Of a DNA stretch of 64,000 nt, positions 1-61,683 are shown one piece after another (the stretch's first letter is position 1; the number at the start of each line of letters is the position of its first letter). Made by a program: the position numbers and the translations under genes. The notes below the pieces were generated by a model. The model saw only the letters and a program-made list of their open reading frames with translations. It was not told the origin of the DNA and ran no database searches. The DNA lies in contig JAFTUL010000013.1 of assembly GCA_017466275.1 (NCBI GenBank), forward strand, positions 39,343 to 103,342, in the 5' to 3' direction. This DNA is from Clostridia bacterium (GTDB taxonomy: Bacteria > Bacillota > Clostridia > UMGS1883).

Positions 1-934
<934 letters not shown>

Positions 935-947
935 AAAAGTGAGGAAA

Positions 948-1388
948 ATGGAAATGAATGCAATAAAGAAAATCAGTGCGTTGGCACTGGTGATTATAAT
1001 GGCATTTTCTTTTTCAGCCTGCTCGAATATGAAAGAGCAGATAACAGACCTTACAAAAGAGCGGACAGAACTCCAGAAATATGTGGAGGAACACGGAGAA
1101 GAGTTTATTAACACCTTCAAAGAGGGTTTTGAAATAAGCGGAATGAAGTGTGATGCCACGATTGAAGCAGACGGAAACATTCTTATTATGAATGTCAGTA
1201 TGGCGGAGTTTAACGACGTTCCTGAAGAGATAAAGAGTGTAATTCAGGCTTCGTTGGATGAAAGTAAATCTTCTCTTGCCTCGTCTTTTGCGGAGATAAA
1301 AAAACAGATTTCTTCCCTTGAAGGAGTAAAGGTAAACTTCAACGAGGCAGACGGTGCCCCTATTGCAGCAATAGAGGTTGAAGTATAA
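948..1388 (+). CDS. small lipoprotein, hypothetical
   Basis: Internal start MEMNAIKK preceded by GAGG. Signal peptide plus lipobox-like FSAC. The upstream part of ORF 837..1388 overlaps serS and is not credible. Confidence 0.5.
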   Translation: MEMNAIKKISALALVIIMAFSFSACSNMKEQITDLTKERTELQKYVEEHGEEFINTFKEGFEISGMKCDATIEADGNILIMNVSMAEFNDVPEEIKSVIQASLDESKSSLASSFAEIKKQISSLEGVKVNFNEADGAPIAAIEVEV

Positions 1389-53821: not shown

Positions 53822-55843
53822 TTATTTCAAAATTTCTCCCGTAAACGGATGCTCCTCTTCGCGAACGGGCATATACGGTAAAATTACATAGTCAGAATCA
53901 AAACGAAGCCCTTTTTGGTAAAGGTAATTAATCTCCCCGGGGGAATATCCCTGCGGAAAAATATAAGATTTCCCGTCATAATAAACCTTGAGCATACGGG
54001 CATCTTTAATAAAGTAAACGGGTATATATTCCAACACAGTATTTCCAAACTGATATTTTTGGTAGTCTTTCAGCAAGATGACATCAATATTTCTCTCTTT
54101 GGAACGGGTCAGGAGGGTATCCCTCTTTGACTTTCGGAATATGGGGTCAGATGCAATAATAGTGTCTATGTGATTTTCATATAAAAGAATATGAAATGTG
54201 TTTTGAGTTGTCAGAATAACCGTGGAAAAGGGCTGTGATGCGGTATGAAGAGTTCGTGCGTCGTGCAGCCTTGGGCAGTCTACCAGAAAGGTGTTTCCGT
54301 CGGAAAGCCGTACTGCAGACATGGTTTGTGTCCCGTAATATGCTGTAGAAATATTTGTTTCCTCGATGGGAGAATACATAGTTAAAAACACCGTTATGAC
54401 GGAAAAAACCGCGGAAAACCGATGCCTGTTGCTTCTTGTAAGGGGGTGCATATATATTAGTACAAGCAAAAACGCCCATAAAATAATAACCGTAAGACAG
54501 CTTCCCCGAATTTCCAAAAGGGAGAAGGGCAAATCCCTTACAAAACCGCTTGCCGAGGTTATCCCGAGGGAGAAAAGCCTCATAGCAAACGCTGTACCGT
54601 TGGAAAGAATCGCTATCGGTGAAGCAATAATAAGAATCATTCCGAGGATAACATAAACTCCCGAAAGCGGTACTAAAAGGGCGTTTGAGAGCAACGACCA
54701 AGGCGTTATCGTACCGAAATAATAAACTATTATGGGCATAACGGTTAGCTGTGCACTTATGCTCATAGACAAAACCTCCGCAAGGGCAGAGGGCATAAAT
54801 TTCGATAAAATACCCGAAATTTTTTTGTTATAAATAATTATTCCTGCAACAGCCAGTACAGAAAGAATAAATCCTGCATTAAATACCGTAAACGGATTTA
54901 TGAAAGTCATTATAAGCACCGCAACTGCAAGCGATGTCGGAGAATCGTTGTCACGGTAGATGTATTTTGAGAGGAGGTAAATTGAGCACATAATAAATGC
55001 CCTTATTACGCTTGCACCTGCACCTGTTAAAAGTACAATAAAAAGTGCACCTGCAAAAACCAATATGTAACCGCATCTTCGCTTCCCAACAAAAAGCCAT
55101 GCGATAATCATAAGAAAAGTCATTGCCACAGAAAGGTGCAATCCCGAAACCACGGCAATGTGACTGAGTCCGCTTGCTTTAAGGGATGCGTCAAGGTCCT
55201 CTGAAATCAGCCGTTTGTCCCCGATAACCATTGCATTAAAAAGCCCGCGGTCATCTTCGTTGGGAAAATATTTTTTACCGAGGCTGTCTATGTAAACCCG
55301 CAGGGAATACAGCTTCCCCATCAGTCCGTCAGCTTTTCCTATTGGCTGAGGAGACTTTTCTGCATCCGAAATAAGAAAAATGCCATTCCCTGCAAGAGTA
55401 TGGGCGTAACCGTGGGAGAAAATTTTGCTTGCATTGGGGGTATAAAGAGAAAATTCCCCCTCTATAATATCCCCAGGAGAAAGACGGGAATCCTCGTCAA
55501 AGCGGAGAAGTACCTTGTGCCTTTCCCCTCTGTCCTCAAAATACGCAGTAACGGAATTGTTATCCGAAAAATCAGTTACCGTCAGCCTCATTACCTCGCT
55601 TTTGCCTGAATATTCAGCAATAATGGTGTCACGGAGATTTTCGGCAAGAATCATTCTGCCTATTCCCAGAGTAATCAGCAAGACGGCAATAAATGACGGA
55701 AAGAGCCTCTTTGTTTTCAAAAACACAAACGCCCATACCAATAGGCACATAACTGCCGTTATTATTAAATTTACGCTATACGCGGCAAGAAATATTCCAA
55801 GAACGAATAAAATTGCCACAGGAATAAGCGGTCTTTTAATCAT
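53822..55843 (-). CDS. comEC: DNA internalization-related competence protein ComEC/Rec2
   Basis: 673 aa with DUF4131 N-segment, competence polytopic core (…SGLHLSV…) and degenerate metallo-beta-lactamase C-domain. Confidence 0.8.
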   Translation of the reverse strand: MIKRPLIPVAILFVLGIFLAAYSVNLIITAVMCLLVWAFVFLKTKRLFPSFIAVLLITLGIGRMILAENLRDTIIAEYSGKSEVMRLTVTDFSDNNSVTAYFEDRGERHKVLLRFDEDSRLSPGDIIEGEFSLYTPNASKIFSHGYAHTLAGNGIFLISDAEKSPQPIGKADGLMGKLYSLRVYIDSLGKKYFPNEDDRGLFNAMVIGDKRLISEDLDASLKASGLSHIAVVSGLHLSVAMTFLMIIAWLFVGKRRCGYILVFAGALFIVLLTGAGASVIRAFIMCSIYLLSKYIYRDNDSPTSLAVAVLIMTFINPFTVFNAGFILSVLAVAGIIIYNKKISGILSKFMPSALAEVLSMSISAQLTVMPIIVYYFGTITPWSLLSNALLVPLSGVYVILGMILIIASPIAILSNGTAFAMRLFSLGITSASGFVRDLPFSLLEIRGSCLTVIILWAFLLVLIYMHPLTRSNRHRFSAVFSVITVFLTMYSPIEETNISTAYYGTQTMSAVRLSDGNTFLVDCPRLHDARTLHTASQPFSTVILTTQNTFHILLYENHIDTIIASDPIFRKSKRDTLLTRSKERNIDVILLKDYQKYQFGNTVLEYIPVYFIKDARMLKVYYDGKSYIFPQGYSPGEINYLYQKGLRFDSDYVILPYMPVREEEHPFTGEILK

Positions 55844-55847
55844 AGGG

Positions 55848-56090
55848 TTATTTTATCTCCTGTTCGAGGGAATTAAAAACTTCTGTGGAGAAAAATTCCT
55901 CAAGGGTAATTTCAAGACCGTCACAAAACTTCTTGATTGTTCTGATGGATATATCACGGCGGGATTCGTCAATCATACTGTACGCCGTAGACGGAGTAAC
56001 GCCTGATATATTGGCTAATTCGTTAATTTTCCAGCCCTTTTCATTGCATAACTGCAAAAATCTTTCAACAATAGCATCTTTGATATCCAT
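55848..56090 (-). CDS. XRE-family HTH transcriptional regulator (80 aa)
   Basis: HTH_3 pattern (…WKINELANISGVTPSTAYSMIDESRRDISIRTIKKFCDGLEI…). Confidence 0.7.
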   Translation of the reverse strand: MDIKDAIVERFLQLCNEKGWKINELANISGVTPSTAYSMIDESRRDISIRTIKKFCDGLEITLEEFFSTEVFNSLEQEIK

Positions 56091-56177
56091 TGAAAACTCA
56101 CCTCAAGGATATTTTACTCTCTTTTACGATTGTGCGTATACGCACACGCGTGCTACACTGCAAGATTTGCAAACAAT

Positions 56178-56766
56178 TTCTGCGGAGTCGCAGAGGACGG
56201 TGTACTTTTGGGAGCCAAAAGTACCAAAAACGCGGGGGTTCCGATTCCCCCGCACCCCTGAAACGGCCTCGCAGGGGCGTAAAAAAGCAAATACTTGTTT
56301 TTAATTACAAAGATGGTTTTGTTTTTCGAAATTATTTGTTTTTGTGTCGCCGTCCTAAAAGGAAAACTTATTTCCTTGCGGACTAAAAATCGCTCGTCAG
56401 CAGCGGAAGTTGATACGAGCGATTTTTACGCCAGTCAACAAAGAATTTCTCAAAACCCGACTGTTCTACCGAAGCACTAAACTAAGGTTTTTGCAAATTT
56501 TCTGTCGGCTACCGTGAAATTGCGAGTATTAGTTTCCTCTGCAGGCGAGCAATTTCAGGCGAACAGGCAACTGAGTGTTGCCTTAAAGCCGACGGTTCAA
56601 AGACGGAAAATTTGCAAAAACGAAAACGATACATTAAAAGAAAACCACGCCCAAGAAATATTACGCCCCTGCGAGGGCGTTGAGGGGTGTGGGGAGAATC
56701 GCAACTCCCCACCGCTTTTCGCCATTTTGGCGTTCAAAATGGCACTCCCCTAATCGGCTCCGATTA
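56178..56766. repeat. largest composite copy R2 of modular stem-loop repeat family (HP1-X-Y-W / rcL / M / W-Y-Z-end hairpin)
   Basis: 56180..56280 carries the ctgcggagtcgcag, gtacttttgggagccaaaagtac, gggggttccgattccccc and acggcctcgcaggggcgt hairpins. 56286..56465 is the reverse complement of 32641..32820. 56467..56766 is ~90% identical to 36938..37232. Confidence 0.8.
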
Positions 56767-56845
56767 AATACCTGCAATTTCTTGCAATAAAAAACAAAAT
56801 TTTGCAATAAAAAATACTTTTTTGCTAAAAGTATGCGAAAAACTC

Positions 56846-56875
56846 TTGATTTTCCCCCTGCCTTGGTATTATAAT
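56846..56875 (+). promoter_or_regulatory. strong sigma-A promoter of potABCD
   Basis: TTGATT, 18 nt spacer, TATAAT. Two TTGCAATAAAAAA direct repeats lie upstream (56782..56794 and 56802..56814). Confidence 0.55.
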
Positions 56876-57120
56876 ATAATAAGCAAACGATTTCTTTGGA
56901 ATCTTAATGCAAATATAGGACCACTCTCATGGGAGTCGAGGCCATACGGACAGCCGGGTCCACTGCCTATTGATTGAGTTAAAAGCTCAGTTTTATAAGT
57001 TGGTTACTTTATAACCGAAATGCGTAATTGCGCTAACTTGTGAAATGGTCAATAAGAGTAGTGACTCTGTATGTCCAATATCTTAAATTTTCTTAGGAAA
57101 TTTGTCTTTTTTGAGATATT

Positions 57121-57160
57121 AACACAAGTCGTGTAATTGCGATTTGTGTTTTTTATTTAC
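57121..57160 (+). promoter_or_regulatory. intrinsic terminator (attenuator) inside the potA 5' leader
   Basis: AACACAA-gtcgtgtaattgcga-TTGTGTT followed by TTTTTTATTT, 20 nt before the RBS AAGAGGTG. Upstream ACTTGTG (57046..57052) can pair with the 5' arm as an antiterminator. Confidence 0.55.
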
Positions 57161-57179
57161 ATAAAAAGAGGTGTTTTAG

Positions 57180-58667
57180 ATGGCAAACAACGTAATCATT
57201 GAACTTAAAAATGTATCCAAGCATTTCGGGCAGACGTATGCTGTGGAGGATTTCAACCTTTATGTCAAGAAAGGGGAATTTGTAACCTTTTTGGGACCAA
57301 GCGGATGCGGAAAGACTACCACTCTCCGAATGATTGCAGGATTTGAGCTTCCTACGGGCGGACAAATTCTCCTAAACGGGGAGGATATTTCCCTGCTTCC
57401 GCCGTACAAACGCCCTGTAAATACTGTATTCCAGAAGTATGCTCTTTTTCCTCATATGGATGTGTATGACAACATTGCTTTCGGTCTGAAGCTGAAGAAA
57501 ATTCCCGACGGGGAAAAGACGAGAAAGCTTACCAAAGAGGAAATTGACAAAAAAGTCAGGAAAGCTCTTAAAATAGTTGACCTTGAAGAGTACGAAAACC
57601 GTGATATATCCACCCTTTCAGGCGGTCAGCAGCAGAGAATTGCCATTGCCCGTGCTATTGTAAATGAGCCTGAAATTCTTCTCCTTGACGAGCCTTTGGG
57701 TGCTCTCGATTTGAAAATGAGAAAGGATATGCAGCTTGAACTTAAGGAAATGCACAAGAAACTCGGCATCACCTTTATATACGTAACTCACGACCAGGAG
57801 GAGGCACTTACTCTCTCCGACACGATTGTGGTTATGAAAGACGGTATGATTCAGCAAATCGGCACTCCCGAGGATATTTATAACGAGCCCAGCAATGCCT
57901 TTGTCGCAAACTTCATCGGTGAAAGCAATATTTACAGCGGTACGGTGACGGGCGACAAAAAAGTCAGATTTATAAACCACGTTTTTGATTGTGTTGACGA
58001 ATTCCCGAAAAATGAAAAGGTTGATGTGGTAATCCGTCCCGAGGATGTTCATATTACAAGTGCTGACAGCGGTATGGCAAAAGGCAAAATTGTCAGCAAA
58101 ATTTTCAAGGGCATCCACTACGAATACATAATGATGGTTGGCAGAAACGAGCTTGTCATAGTTGATACAAGGGATTTGAATGTGAACGAAACCTACGGCT
58201 TTGACATTGAGCCTGACGGTATTCACATTATGAAAAAGGAACTTACCTCCAATATCTACAATGATGCCTACATTGACAAGGAAAACCGTGTTGTTATTTC
58301 CGAATGTCCCTTTGAATGTGACATTACTTCTCTTGTGCAAGGCTCTATCGTTGACAGTGAGGGCTATGTTGTAGGCCCTGACGGTACACGTTACGACTTT
58401 ACTGATGCGGATGTCCGTGCAGAAATCGGACTCAAGGATATTGAAATCCTCGACGACGAGGAAGCAGGTGTCGTAAAGGGTGAGATTGTTTCCATTATAT
58501 ATAAGGGTGACCATTATCAGCTTACAATCCGCACTCCCGAGGATGAAGATTTTGTTCTTGATACTGAATATACATATGACGAGAACGACCTTGTAGGTCT
58601 TAATGTACGCCCTCAGGACATAAAGCTTACATTGAAAGGAGAGGCGAAGAAATATGCAAAAAAATAA
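57180..58667 (+). CDS. potA: spermidine/putrescine ABC transporter ATP-binding protein PotA with extended C-terminal TOBE region
   Basis: Walker [10 protein letters not shown], signature LSGGQQQR, Walker [12 protein letters not shown]. 495 aa, ~120 aa longer than a typical PotA. Confidence 0.85.
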
Positions 58668-59451
58668 TATTTTTTCCAGAAAAACTCTCGCCCTGCCTTA
58701 TGCTGTCTTTATGATTCTGTTTGTTGTGATTCCGCTTTTTCTGATTGTGATGTACGCGTTTACGGATGCAGACGGAAAATTTACCTTTGATAATTTCCGT
58801 ACATTTTTCTCCGGCGGACACAACATAAATACATTGATGTTCAGTATATTTATAGGTATGGCGAATACGGCACTCTGCCTGCTTTTGGGCTACCCTGCCG
58901 CTTACATACTGGCGAAAAAGGAAATGGGCTTTGGCAAGGCAACTGTGCTTCTGTTTGTAATGCCGATGTGGATAAACTTCGTTCTTCGTACCGCCGCAAC
59001 ACGAGACCTTCTCTTTGCAATGGGTATTTCTGGCGGGGAGCATCCCTATTTTGCCACAATGATTGGTATGGTGTATAACTACCTGCCATTTGTAATTCTG
59101 CCCCTTTACACCTCTATGACAAAAATGAATTTAAGTCTTATTGAGGCATCCTACGACCTCGGTGCAAATAAGGTGCAGACATTCTTTAAAACGGTGCTTC
59201 CTATGACTATGCCTGGGATTGCATCTGCGGCAACAATGGTGTTTATGCCCACTATGAGCAGCTTTGTAATAAGTGACGTTATGGGTGAGAGAAAGATTTC
59301 CCTTATCGGTAACAGTATTCAGCTTTATTTCGACCAGGGATTGTGGAATTTAGGCAGTCTTGTTGCCCTCATAATGCTTATAATTATGGCATTTGGTGCA
59401 CTCTGTGCCGATTCCGAGGGTGAAAGTGATGCGAGAGGGGGTCTGTGGTAA
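58654..59451 (+). CDS. potB: spermidine/putrescine ABC transporter permease PotB
   Basis: 265 aa. 6-TM BPD_transp_1 permease. Overlaps potA by 14 nt. Confidence 0.85.
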
Positions 59452-60260
59452 TGAAGAAAAAGCTTTCTTTTACGGAGTTCCTCAGCAAATTTTATGTGTA
59501 TATCCTGCTTCTGGTTATGTATGCACCGCTTTTGCTTCTGATTGTGTTCAGCTTCACCGATACGAAAATTATCGGCAGATGGGACGGCTTCAGTCTGCAT
59601 CTGTATGAGGCTCTCTTTAAGGATGCCGAAATTATGCAGGCGTTTGGAAACACATTCTTGGTTGCAATTTCCTCTGCCGTGGTTTCCACGATTTTAGGAA
59701 CAATGGGTGCAATAGGCATTTTTTACAGCGGAAAGAGAAGCAAGGCAATAATGGAGGGAATCAGCAACATTCCCGTTATAAATGCGGAAATTGTTACAGC
59801 ACTTTCGCTTACCATTCTATTTGTTATGGCAGGTGTGACTTTTAACTTTATCACGCTTCTTATCGGTCACGTAGTGCTGACAATCCCCTTTGTTATACTG
59901 GCTGTACGTCCCAAGCTTATGCAGATGGACCCCAATATTTACGAGGCGGCTCTTGATTTGGGTGCAACTCCCAAAAAGGCACTGAGGACAATCGTAATTC
60001 CCCAGATAATGCCGGGAATTGTGTCAGGTTTTATCCTGTCAATCACTCTTAGCCTTGACGATTATATTATAACGGCGTTTACAAGAGATACGGCATTTCA
60101 GACACTCAGCACCTATGTGTACGGTGTTACCAGCAAAAAGGGTACACTTCCTCCGTCGCTTCGTGCACTTACCACGATTATCACATTGATAGCACTTGTG
60201 ATACTGATTATTGTAAATATTAACAGTTCGGGGGAGAAAAAGAAAAATGAAAAAATTTAG
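59445..60260 (+). CDS. potC: spermidine/putrescine ABC transporter permease PotC
   Basis: 271 aa permease with EAA loop. Overlaps potB. Confidence 0.85.
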   Translation: MVMKKKLSFTEFLSKFYVYILLLVMYAPLLLLIVFSFTDTKIIGRWDGFSLHLYEALFKDAEIMQAFGNTFLVAISSAVVSTILGTMGAIGIFYSGKRSKAIMEGISNIPVINAEIVTALSLTILFVMAGVTFNFITLLIGHVVLTIPFVILAVRPKLMQMDPNIYEAALDLGATPKKALRTIVIPQIMPGIVSGFILSITLSLDDYIITAFTRDTAFQTLSTYVYGVTSKKGTLPPSLRALTTIITLIALVILIIVNINSSGEKKKNEKI

Positions 60261-61683
60261 TGCACTTATATTGTGTCTTATACTGTGCTTTTCCTATGCC
60301 CCCTTGTCATTTGCGGAAGAAACGGTGCTGAAGGTTTATAACTGGCAGGACTATATTGACGAGGGAAAAGACGACGACGGTGCGAAAATTTCAGATTCCG
60401 TTATGGAATTGTGGGAAAAGGATTACCTGAGTCGCACAGGAAAAAAGGTGCGTGTACAGTACGACACCTTTGAAACAAACGAAACAATGTTAAACACCCT
60501 CAGGACAGGGCGTTCCGATTATGACCTGGTATGTCCGTCGGACTATATCATTCAGAAAATGATTTCCGCAACGGAAAAAGGTAATGACGAAAATATCGCT
60601 ATTGAGAAATTCGATATATCGGCTATGCCCAACTACACAAAAAATGTTTCTCCGTATATTTCAGAATTGTTTGAAAAGAACGGCTGGACAGAATATTCGG
60701 TAGCATATATGTGGGGCACGGTTGGTTTCCTCTACAATCCCGAAACGGTTTTGAGGGAAGATATTTCCACGTGGGATTTCTTCTGGAACACTGATTACCG
60801 AAACAGAATGACCTGCAAGGATGTTTCCCGTGATGCTTATGTTATTGGCTCGCTCTATGTACACCGTGACGAGCTTCGCAAGGCAAATAAAAAGTATAAA
60901 AAGGGTGAAATTTCTGCCGAGGAATTGCAGAAAATTGTAAATACTGCGGCAAATGACACCACAGCGGAAAACATTGCAAATGTGGAAATTGCCCTTTCTG
61001 ATATGAAAAGGAATATCTACGGCTTTGAGGTGGATTCGGGAAAGACCGATATTGTATCGGGAAAAATCCATGCAAACCTTGCGTGGAGCGGTGATGCCGT
61101 TTATGCAATGGACCTTGCCGAGGAAGAGGACGGAAAAGAGCTTGAGTTTGTAATTCCCAACGAGGGAAGTACAATTTATTTTGACGGTTGGGTTATGCCC
61201 AAGGGGGCAAATGTGGAGCTTGCTCAGGATTTCGTGGACTTTTTGTGCAGACCCGAAATAGCAGTTATGAATATGGATTATATCGGTTATACCAGTGCTA
61301 TTGCAGGTGACGAAATCTTCGACCTTGTATGCGAAAATTACGAGGAAGAGGACGGAGAGTACGAATACGACCTTTCCTATTTCTTCAACGGAACTCTGTC
61401 GGAGGATAAATATACCGACGGAAAGGCAATCATCCGTACAAATACATTCGGCAGACAGCTTACCACACAGTACCCCTCTACCGAAGAGGTTGCACGATGC
61501 GGTATTATGGAGGATTTCGGGGACAGAAATGAAGCGGTCCTTGAAATGTGGAGCAAGGTCAAGAGCAATAACATCACAGCATTTTCATACGTGATGATGG
61601 CTTTCCTTGCATTGGTAGCAGTATTTATGCTGACATCTTCAATAAAGAAAAAATTGAAAAAGAAAAAAAGAATGAGAAGATAA
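60247..61683 (+). CDS. potD: polyamine-type extracellular solute-binding protein PotD-like, with insertions and C-terminal TM anchor
   Basis: Signal peptide. SBP_bac_1/PotD-like core (…LKVYNWQDYID…). 478 aa. Ends with a hydrophobic helix plus KKKLKKKKRMRR tail. Confidence 0.7.
   Translation: MKKFSALILCLILCFSYAPLSFAEETVLKVYNWQDYIDEGKDDDGAKISDSVMELWEKDYLSRTGKKVRVQYDTFETNETMLNTLRTGRSDYDLVCPSDYIIQKMISATEKGNDENIAIEKFDISAMPNYTKNVSPYISELFEKNGWTEYSVAYMWGTVGFLYNPETVLREDISTWDFFWNTDYRNRMTCKDVSRDAYVIGSLYVHRDELRKANKKYKKGEISAEELQKIVNTAANDTTAENIANVEIALSDMKRNIYGFEVDSGKTDIVSGKIHANLAWSGDAVYAMDLAEEEDGKELEFVIPNEGSTIYFDGWVMPKGANVELAQDFVDFLCRPEIAVMNMDYIGYTSAIAGDEIFDLVCENYEEEDGEYEYDLSYFFNGTLSEDKYTDGKAIIRTNTFGRQLTTQYPSTEEVARCGIMEDFGDRNEAVLEMWSKVKSNNITAFSYVMMAFLALVAVFMLTSSIKKKLKKKKRMRR

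Follow-up and report, generated by a model that had tools for sequence, protein, structure and literature searches.

The closest described counterpart of the RNA treated here, the leader of the potABCD operon in a stretch of 64,000 nt from a Clostridia bacterium (GenBank assembly GCA_017466275.1, contig JAFTUL010000013.1, positions 39,343 to 103,342 of the forward strand; hereafter the window), is the ldcC motif. It was published in 2017 by Weinberg et al. as a bulged hairpin, rich in invariant nucleotides, that is widespread in Firmicutes and located in the 5′ untranslated regions (5′UTRs) of arginine, ornithine or S-adenosylmethionine (SAM) decarboxylase genes and of PotA (PMC5737381). A role in polyamine homeostasis was suggested as possible by these authors, who did not go further (PMC5737381). 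A pseudoknot of the invariant nucleotides was also proposed, for which there is no covariation since these nucleotides do not vary (PMC5737381). No follow-up on the motif could be found in the searched literature and it is still an orphan candidate; in Rfam it is kept as RF02440 (SpF59 sRNA / ldcC RNA), an entry of the type 'Gene; sRNA' (small RNA).

Among riboswitches, a single polyamine case has been validated, a rare SAM-I variant, known from 13 representatives, that senses spermidine (Salvail et al., 2023, PMC10853860) and acts as a terminator-based OFF switch on ldcC, speE and speB in Firmicutes (PMC10853860). It is the best functional analogy for the potABCD leader, with which it shares the kind of genes and a terminator/antiterminator platform, whereas sequence and fold are unrelated and the 13 representatives stand against at least 120 loci of the ldcC family in each of the two scans described below. 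The M-box Mg2+ riboswitch (ykoK leader) is a large conserved Firmicute leader in which cation-induced compaction sequesters the antiterminator strand, so that the terminator forms; it serves as an analogy only, with no sequence or Rfam relationship. T-box leaders are comparable in being long (200–300 nt) Firmicute leaders with competing terminator and antiterminator helices. However, the window leader has no specifier loop and no T-box sequence, its genes are not aminoacyl-tRNA related, and the T-box model (RF00230), which did find the T-box of pheS at a related locus (L244), identified none in the window.

In the whole window, RF02440 is the single Rfam match (56918–56969; coordinates are window positions on the forward strand unless stated otherwise). 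With cmscan, the match reached 59.9 bits (gathering score 37.2) at an E-value of 3e-8 over the 64 kb, and it covers model positions 1–54 of 54. The nested structure that the original prediction had noted in the leader is therefore real and a member of the ldcC / SpF59 family, with coordinates (56918–56961) that differ by one base from those given at the time. The accompanying statement that no riboswitch class had been described for pot operons has to be withdrawn, as the motif was already published with PotA among its genes (PMC5737381). The copy consists of the P1 helix (56918–56922 with 56957–56961), an inner hairpin (56923–56936), the conserved 21 nt core GGCCAUACGGACAGCCGGGUC as an exact match (56940–56960), which contains a mini-stem (56940–56942/56953–56955) and the invariant loop ACGGAC (56946–56951), and the tail UGCC (56964–56967), which reads UGCCU in the window where the family has UGCCG. 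The hairpin carries the bulge with the highly conserved AAGGCCAUACGGACAGCCGGGUC, and potA follows on the same strand after 219 nt, which places the motif in a polyamine-gene 5′UTR.

The published bulge is structured in the family analyzed here. Core positions 2 and 15 covary in 81 leaders (74 G-C and 6 C-G), which reveals the mini-stem within it, and the ACGGAC loop is invariant in 81 distinct leaders that were chosen without regard to the core region. The pair extending P1 occurs as G-C (72), U-A (62) and C-G (16). For the invariant ACGGAC, nothing convincing as an RNA partner was found by eye or by mutual information, and the high-scoring column pairs outside of helices mostly follow clades. 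A second ldcC copy was not found in the window. For other Rfam families (T-box, SAM-I, speF, potC and the rest), only chance-level matches were obtained at E ≤10, the remaining matches over 56600–57300 being far under the gathering scores (E 1.2 to 8). A SAM-I fold was found neither at gathering score in the window nor at E ≤10 in 56600–57300.

The comparison set comprised about 240 related loci. One genome per species was scanned for the 21 nt core GGCCATACGGACAGCCGGGTC, and metagenomes for a 24 nt pattern taken from the 3′ domain, each scan yielding at least 120 loci; seven related loci were reached via PotA homologues. As loci in the two scans were picked by exact sequence patterns, each sample was used for conservation figures only in the RNA half on which it had not been selected. 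The listed core matches are found in Bacilli (Bacillus, Priestia, Neobacillus, Paenibacillus and Brevibacillus), in Clostridia (Oscillospiraceae, Lachnospiraceae, Ruminococcaceae, Christensenellaceae and others) and in Negativicutes (Acidaminococcus).

Among the loci chosen on the core alone, conservation extends further for about 150–200 nt, and the 3′ anchor ACUUGUGAAAcGgUCAAUAAGAG is present in all but three of the listed loci with enough downstream sequence. In the reverse test, the ldcC core was found in 98 of the 111 listed 3′-domain loci with enough upstream sequence. The ldcC core is followed by UGCCGA, a variable hairpin P2, UUAUUGAUUGAGUUAAAAGCUCAAAUUUUAUAAGUUGGUUACUUUAUAACC, a variable hairpin P7 and ACUUGUGAAAcGGUCAAUAAGAGUAGUAAAAGUA...UUGCUAUAUAGACUCU, and a conserved AGAGUCUUUCCAAGCAgAUAAU also lies 5′ of the ldcC hairpin. 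Judged from these comparisons, the 54 nt Rfam motif is only the 5′ subdomain of a conserved RNA of 190–260 nt with the helices P0–P7, an architecture that is new in that it was not found in Rfam or in the searched literature. Compared with the published 54 nt, the window adds a domain of about 100 nt (150–200 nt at most loci) and a terminator.

The structure of the 3′ domain (56968–57054 in the window), which lies outside every Rfam model, was assessed with a MAFFT alignment of 109 leaders, from which P3–P6 pairs were counted; P7 was left out because MAFFT misaligns this variable hairpin. In total, 95.2% of the P3–P6 cells are paired compared to 29–46% when the 3′ partners were slid by 1–3 columns, and changes on both sides affect 9 pairs and 19 cells compared to 2.0 and 2.4 for shuffles (none of 500 reaches the observed values). 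P3, P4 and P5 were found independently by RNAalifold in the same alignment. The domain is closed by P3 (UAUUGAU, 56968–56974, with GUCAAUA, 57048–57054; 98% of cells paired, with U.G to U-A changes) and holds P4–P7. P4 is the hairpin UGAG-UUAAAAG-CUCA (56975–56989), with both-side changes in three of its four pairs. P5 is formed by (G)UUUUAUAAGU (56990–57000) with 57036–57046 and is paired in 96–98% of cells, whereas sliding its partner by 1–3 columns leaves at most 46%; the pair extending it alternates between A.C (132) and G.U (44). P6 is the hairpin GGUUA-CUUUA-UAACC (57002–57016), all four inner pairs of which show both-side changes in some sequences, e.g., GGCUA/UAGCC. P7 is the hairpin GCG-UAAUUG-CGC (57022–57033); its sequence and length vary in the family, but some hairpin is found here in nearly every locus. 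By these computational measures, the potA mRNA leader contains a conserved and structured domain of the sensor type.

In most family members, the domain is enclosed by P0, a long helix joining the 5′ end of the RNA with the segment around GACUCU. P0 covaries strongly, with a mean duplex energy of -23.0 kcal/mol for cognate compared to -18.0 kcal/mol for non-cognate strands (Mann-Whitney p = 4e-24), and it occurs as GCAGAUAAU/AUUAUUUGC in Bacilli, as GCAAUU/AAUUGC and GCAAAUA/UAUUUGC in Clostridia and as CAAGUAUAC/GUAUCUUG at L006 and L096. The corresponding 5′ segment of the window leader (56882–56917; AGAGUC...GCAgAUAAU in most members) has no such partner: the best duplex of the 5′ and 3′ flanks reaches -5.6 kcal/mol compared to the family mean of -23.0 kcal/mol, so that P0 is missing or degenerate. 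The family segment GAGUAGUAAAAGUA...UUGCUAUAUAGACUCU, normally the 3′ strand of P0, is shortened here to the hairpin AGAGU-AGUG-ACUCU (57055–57068), which is left by a deletion common to the window, L241 and L245, while L243 and L246 retain the long form. P2 is missing in the window, L246 and L052. The window copy is a minimal form consisting of the ldcC hairpin, P3–P7, a spacer and the terminator.

The opposite reduction occurs as well. In 13 listed loci with nine distinct sequences (L122, L135, L163, L186, L187, L201, L204, L206 and L219), there is no ldcC hairpin at all, whereas P0, P2, P3–P7, the junction and the terminator are kept. Each of these leaders is located about 200 nt upstream of a match to ACTTGTGAAAYGRTCAATAAGAGT, and they precede genes for SpeA-like decarboxylases or speD. 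Eight of the nine begin with the conserved GUAUGGAAAnCAG, the exception being L163, and in most of them this sequence pairs with a CCAUAUAUCUG-like sequence after GACUCU. An Rfam scan of four of these leaders gave no match.

Among the seven close relatives, the leader and its promoter are kept in four (PotA 91, 87, 83 and 83% identical), with Rfam scores of 55–70 bits. A comparative alignment and covariation analysis, as called for by the original prediction, supports a structured RNA of the cis-regulatory type that is kept in the family. The leader is absent from the other three relatives. At one of the related loci, L244 (PotA 85% identical), which lacks the ldcC leader, the intergenic region contains a T-box (909–1133, reverse strand) that belongs to the divergent pheS. 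At L248 (PotA 74% identical), a gene with HTH_3 and Cupin_2 domains (951–1484) ends 16 nt before potA at the place of the leader; with this PuuR-like domain pair, a protein may have taken over the regulatory role of the RNA. Such a helix-turn-helix–cupin regulator, a protein acting on DNA, is seen beside potA at L248 and not beside the window operon. Furthermore, at L241 (1–989) and L245 (1–1057), the divergently oriented neighbour of the pot leader (reverse strand) encodes an Orn/DAP/Arg decarboxylase (PF02784/PF00278) and is thus another polyamine gene; the neighbour in the window is a different one.

The leader ends with a predicted intrinsic terminator (57121–57158), a G + C-containing stem-loop with a 13 bp stem (57121–57133/57138–57150) and the loop UAAU, followed by the U-run UUUUAUUU. 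The hairpin (57121–57150) has an energy of -14.8 kcal/mol (z = -4.4 compared to shuffles) and contains four G-C pairs. The original prediction had recognized this terminator, though with a 7 bp stem and a 16 nt loop; the T-run, which is TTTTATTT, had been given with two T too many. The terminator is located about 22–30 nt upstream of the potA start. A strict detector placed a terminator at the corresponding position in 219 of the 229 listed loci, and 8 of the 10 misses show one by eye. At L087 and L114, there is no terminator about 120–135 nt after the 3′ anchor; the speD start codon is close to the domain and is adjoined by AUCUUGGAAAGGAUGG, which comes after a GCAAGU/GUGAGU element. These two leaders may represent a translational version of the switch that works by sequestration of the ribosome-binding site.

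The terminator would compete with the conserved domain for one strand. This switching strand, ACUUGUGAAA (57036–57045), is the 3′ strand of P5 and contains ACUUGUG (57036–57042), which is complementary to CACAAGU (57123–57129) in the 5′ arm of the terminator. An antiterminator role of ACTTGTG had already been suggested for this leader; the complementarity is kept in the family, but the element lies at 57036–57042 and not at 57046–57052. A 24 nt pattern including the switching strand occurs once in the window and in none of 100 shuffles. In the window, the switching strand is the best partner for the terminator arm anywhere in the leader (-10.0 kcal/mol). In the family, the 5′ arm carries CA[AG]G in 163 of 219 listed loci, the duplex of the arm with the P5 3′ strand has a mean energy of -10.1 kcal/mol compared to -4.7 kcal/mol (sd 2.3) for shuffled arms, and 84 of the 203 distinct leaders, that of the window included, have the P5 3′ strand as the single best partner of the arm. 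The energies of P5 (-8.5 kcal/mol) and of the antiterminator (-8.2 kcal/mol) are nearly equal in the window, as expected of a switch. Computationally, the leader can therefore adopt mutually exclusive structures that overlap the sensor domain, in what would be a classical three-tier layout, with the two strands of P5 as anti-antiterminator (5′) and antiterminator strand (3′) ahead of the terminator. The duplicated GTAATTGCG reported in the original prediction is present, at 57024–57032 (in P7) and 57133–57141 (in the terminator) rather than at the positions given then, and it appears to be a case of mimicry, P7 together with the switching strand resembling the loop and 3′ arm of the terminator.

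The genes that follow the leader were classified by tblastn with NCBIfam-named reference proteins, which was possible for 212 loci. In all of these listed loci the first gene is polyamine-related, and no other function was seen: 99 encode a SpeA-like decarboxylase, 45 SpeD, 41 PotA and 27 a carboxy(nor)spermidine dehydrogenase. Typical operon orders are decarboxylase-speE-speB-CASDH-nspC, this order preceded by speD, CASDH-nspC, and potABCD. Both spermidine routes as well as spermidine uptake are covered by the family.

We propose that the potABCD leader is a cis-acting attenuator of the ldcC family that is stabilized by polyamine, with the operon turned off at a high polyamine level, and assign a probability of roughly 50% to this reading. 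Transcription would begin near 56882, and the RNA would fold the ldcC hairpin (56918–56961) and the second domain (56968–57068) with P3–P7. In this RNA, ACUUGUGAAA could pair with either of two mutually exclusive partners, UUUUAUAAGU (56991–57000) in P5 or CACAAGU in the terminator arm. When the domain is folded, P5 would hold the switching strand, the terminator would form and transcription would stop before potA. If the domain is not stabilized, the switching strand would pair with the terminator arm and the polymerase would read into potABCD. The polyamine gene set, the precedent of the SAM-I variant and the fact that the switching strand forms part of the sensor domain lead us to infer an OFF switch in which the RNA itself binds the stabilizing signal, most likely a polyamine and probably spermidine.

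Several points weigh against this proposal. The terminated state is already the minimum free energy fold of the window leader (-74.6 compared to -65.9 kcal/mol with the antiterminator forced, a cost of 8.7 kcal/mol), so that read-through may need an active factor, for which an inducer or a protein would fit as well. The window copy, which has neither P0 nor P2, could be weakened, and the nine distinct leaders without the ldcC hairpin cloud the role that this subdomain may have. The covariation of P3 and P5 is thin, as their strands are nearly invariant and the changes in the alignment are mostly from G.U to A-U. The conservation figures are qualified by the sampling with exact patterns, at least 120 loci in each case. 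Ligand binding and termination are predictions for every family member.

The same terminator platform could instead serve protein-mediated attenuation, in which the conserved domain binds a polyamine-responsive RNA-binding protein or another macromolecule. A terminated fold that is already the minimum, and may need a factor, is in line with this explanation, as is the very high conservation of primary sequence, which is typical of RNAs contacting a conserved macromolecule. Numerous and mostly unpublished attempts at spermidine riboswitches are reported by the Breaker laboratory (PMC10853860), and the ldcC motif is an orphan nine years on, with no follow-up in the searched literature. However, about 200 nt of nearly invariant sequence with several junctions is far above what is typical of RNA protein operators, members occur in Bacilli, Clostridia and Negativicutes alike, and the downstream operons contain enzymes and transporter subunits only, no candidate regulator being found there (upstream neighbours were not surveyed). 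Taken together, we regard protein-mediated attenuation as rather unlikely. An ON switch, in which termination is the default until polyamine shortage, signalled by a precursor or by polycation-dependent folding that is lost and read the other way round, stabilizes the antiterminator and thereby induces synthesis and uptake, is improbable. The thermodynamically favoured terminated state in the window would suit it, and so would the layout, which is like that of T-box leaders, where the effector stabilizes the antiterminator. Yet the antiterminator is short and has no conserved bulge or pocket, and its strand is placed inside P5, the most conserved helix of the domain, which is the usual layout of an OFF switch.

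The Rfam name SpF59 sRNA and the entry type raise the question of whether the terminated leader, a transcript of about 270 nt as expected here, is mainly a small RNA acting in trans with an incidental position at potA. This is very improbable in view of the position and orientation upstream of polyamine genes in 212 of 212 listed loci, of a terminator separated from the potA start by 22 nt that contain no promoter, and of the conserved complementary alternative pairing. Hardly any weight is given to attenuation by a leader peptide, comparable to the upstream open reading frames (uORFs) of enterobacteria that sense polyamines or ornithine. An open reading frame (ORF) of 21 codons (MSNILNFLRKFVFFEILTQVV, 57071–57136) does extend from the spacer into the terminator loop, but in relatives it has 5–22 codons and no conserved peptide, and it is missing from most family members. 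Furthermore, the conserved blocks have stops in two of three frames, the third closes after ten codons, and the blocks are conserved at all three codon positions. The candidate leader peptide was therefore rejected. Its ATG at 57071 is part of a GUAUG found in several close relatives.

The promoter named in the original prediction proved sound. It is of the sigma-70 type, with the -35 box TTGATT (56846–56851), a spacer of 18 nt and the -10 box TATAAT (56870–56875), and matches the consensus in 10 of 12 positions. The same promoter is found in the window and in the four related leaders, as CTTGACA-N17/18-TATAAT in L241, L245 and L246. It is the sole promoter-like site on the forward strand in 56400–57400, so that no rival promoter lies directly upstream of potA; between the terminator and potA, no internal promoter was found, nor is there room for one. 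Read off the position of the -10 box, the transcription start is predicted at about 56882, which results in a leader of about 298 nt up to the potA ATG at 57180. Folding of the whole leader is far better than that of shuffles (z = -5.6; 0 of 100 equally good). A ribosome-binding site, AAAGAGGUG, is located at 57165–57173. The operon consists of potA (57180–58667), potB (58654–59451), potC (59445–60260) and potD (60247–61683), each confirmed by a match to the respective NCBIfam model (PotA, PotB, PotC and PotD). PotA (495 aa) and PotD (478 aa) are about 110–130 aa longer than the family models; the extra length of PotA is common to relatives of 486–533 aa, and the PotA of L018 has 524 aa.

Two further elements of the original prediction were rejected. 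Two copies of TTGCAATAAAAAA, 20 nt apart, do exist upstream of the -35 box (56782–56794 and 56802–56814), but a role as a regulator binding site is not supported: with up to one mismatch allowed, 19 of 100 shuffles yield at least two window matches, a count that is not above chance, and the repeats are not seen in the alignment of the four related leaders. They are probably A/T-rich DNA upstream of the promoter and not an operator. The A/T hairpin (57085–57103) with its T-run (57107–57112) was considered as a first terminator. It has a 6 bp A-U stem that folds at chance level (z = -0.99) and is located within the variable spacer (57069–57120), the sequence and length of which are not kept in the family.

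The region upstream of the pot promoter (56090–56780) comprises about 690 nt without a convincing ORF. It is somewhat richer in G + C than the leader and has no Rfam match; a terminator-like hairpin is located there on the reverse strand (56680–56663). This region is bordered by an ORF of 80 aa (55848–56090, reverse strand), by appearance a putative small XRE-type helix-turn-helix protein, which lies directly upstream of a ComEC-like gene (53822–55843, reverse strand).

For the window alone, the result is an ordinary one, a potABCD operon behind a member of a known candidate-riboswitch family. For the family, it bears on the long-standing question of direct RNA sensing of polyamines by bacteria. 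The ldcC motif is the tip of a large and highly conserved leader across Bacilli, Clostridia and Negativicutes, for which an expression platform consisting of the switching strand, the anti-antiterminator and the terminator is now defined. With the extended domain, the switching strand and the leaders without the hairpin, the orphan motif becomes a concrete candidate, amenable to testing, for a polyamine riboswitch of wide distribution. Rfam-based annotation misses the leaders in which the ldcC hairpin is lacking, and the family differs from the ldcC model both in these leaders, which keep the 3′ domain, and in the window copy, which lacks P0 and P2. The unit to probe is the whole domain and not the 54 nt motif, which could explain why experiments on the short motif alone would tell little. 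In a larger and more tentative reading, the ldcC hairpin would be an optional 5′ module, and the whole RNA, with P0–P7 and a conserved junction, would constitute a second and by far the most widespread natural class of polyamine (spermidine) riboswitches in Bacillota, which would shut both biosynthesis routes and PotABCD uptake by ligand-stabilized sequestration of ACUUGUG, with the window copy as a naturally minimized essential core.

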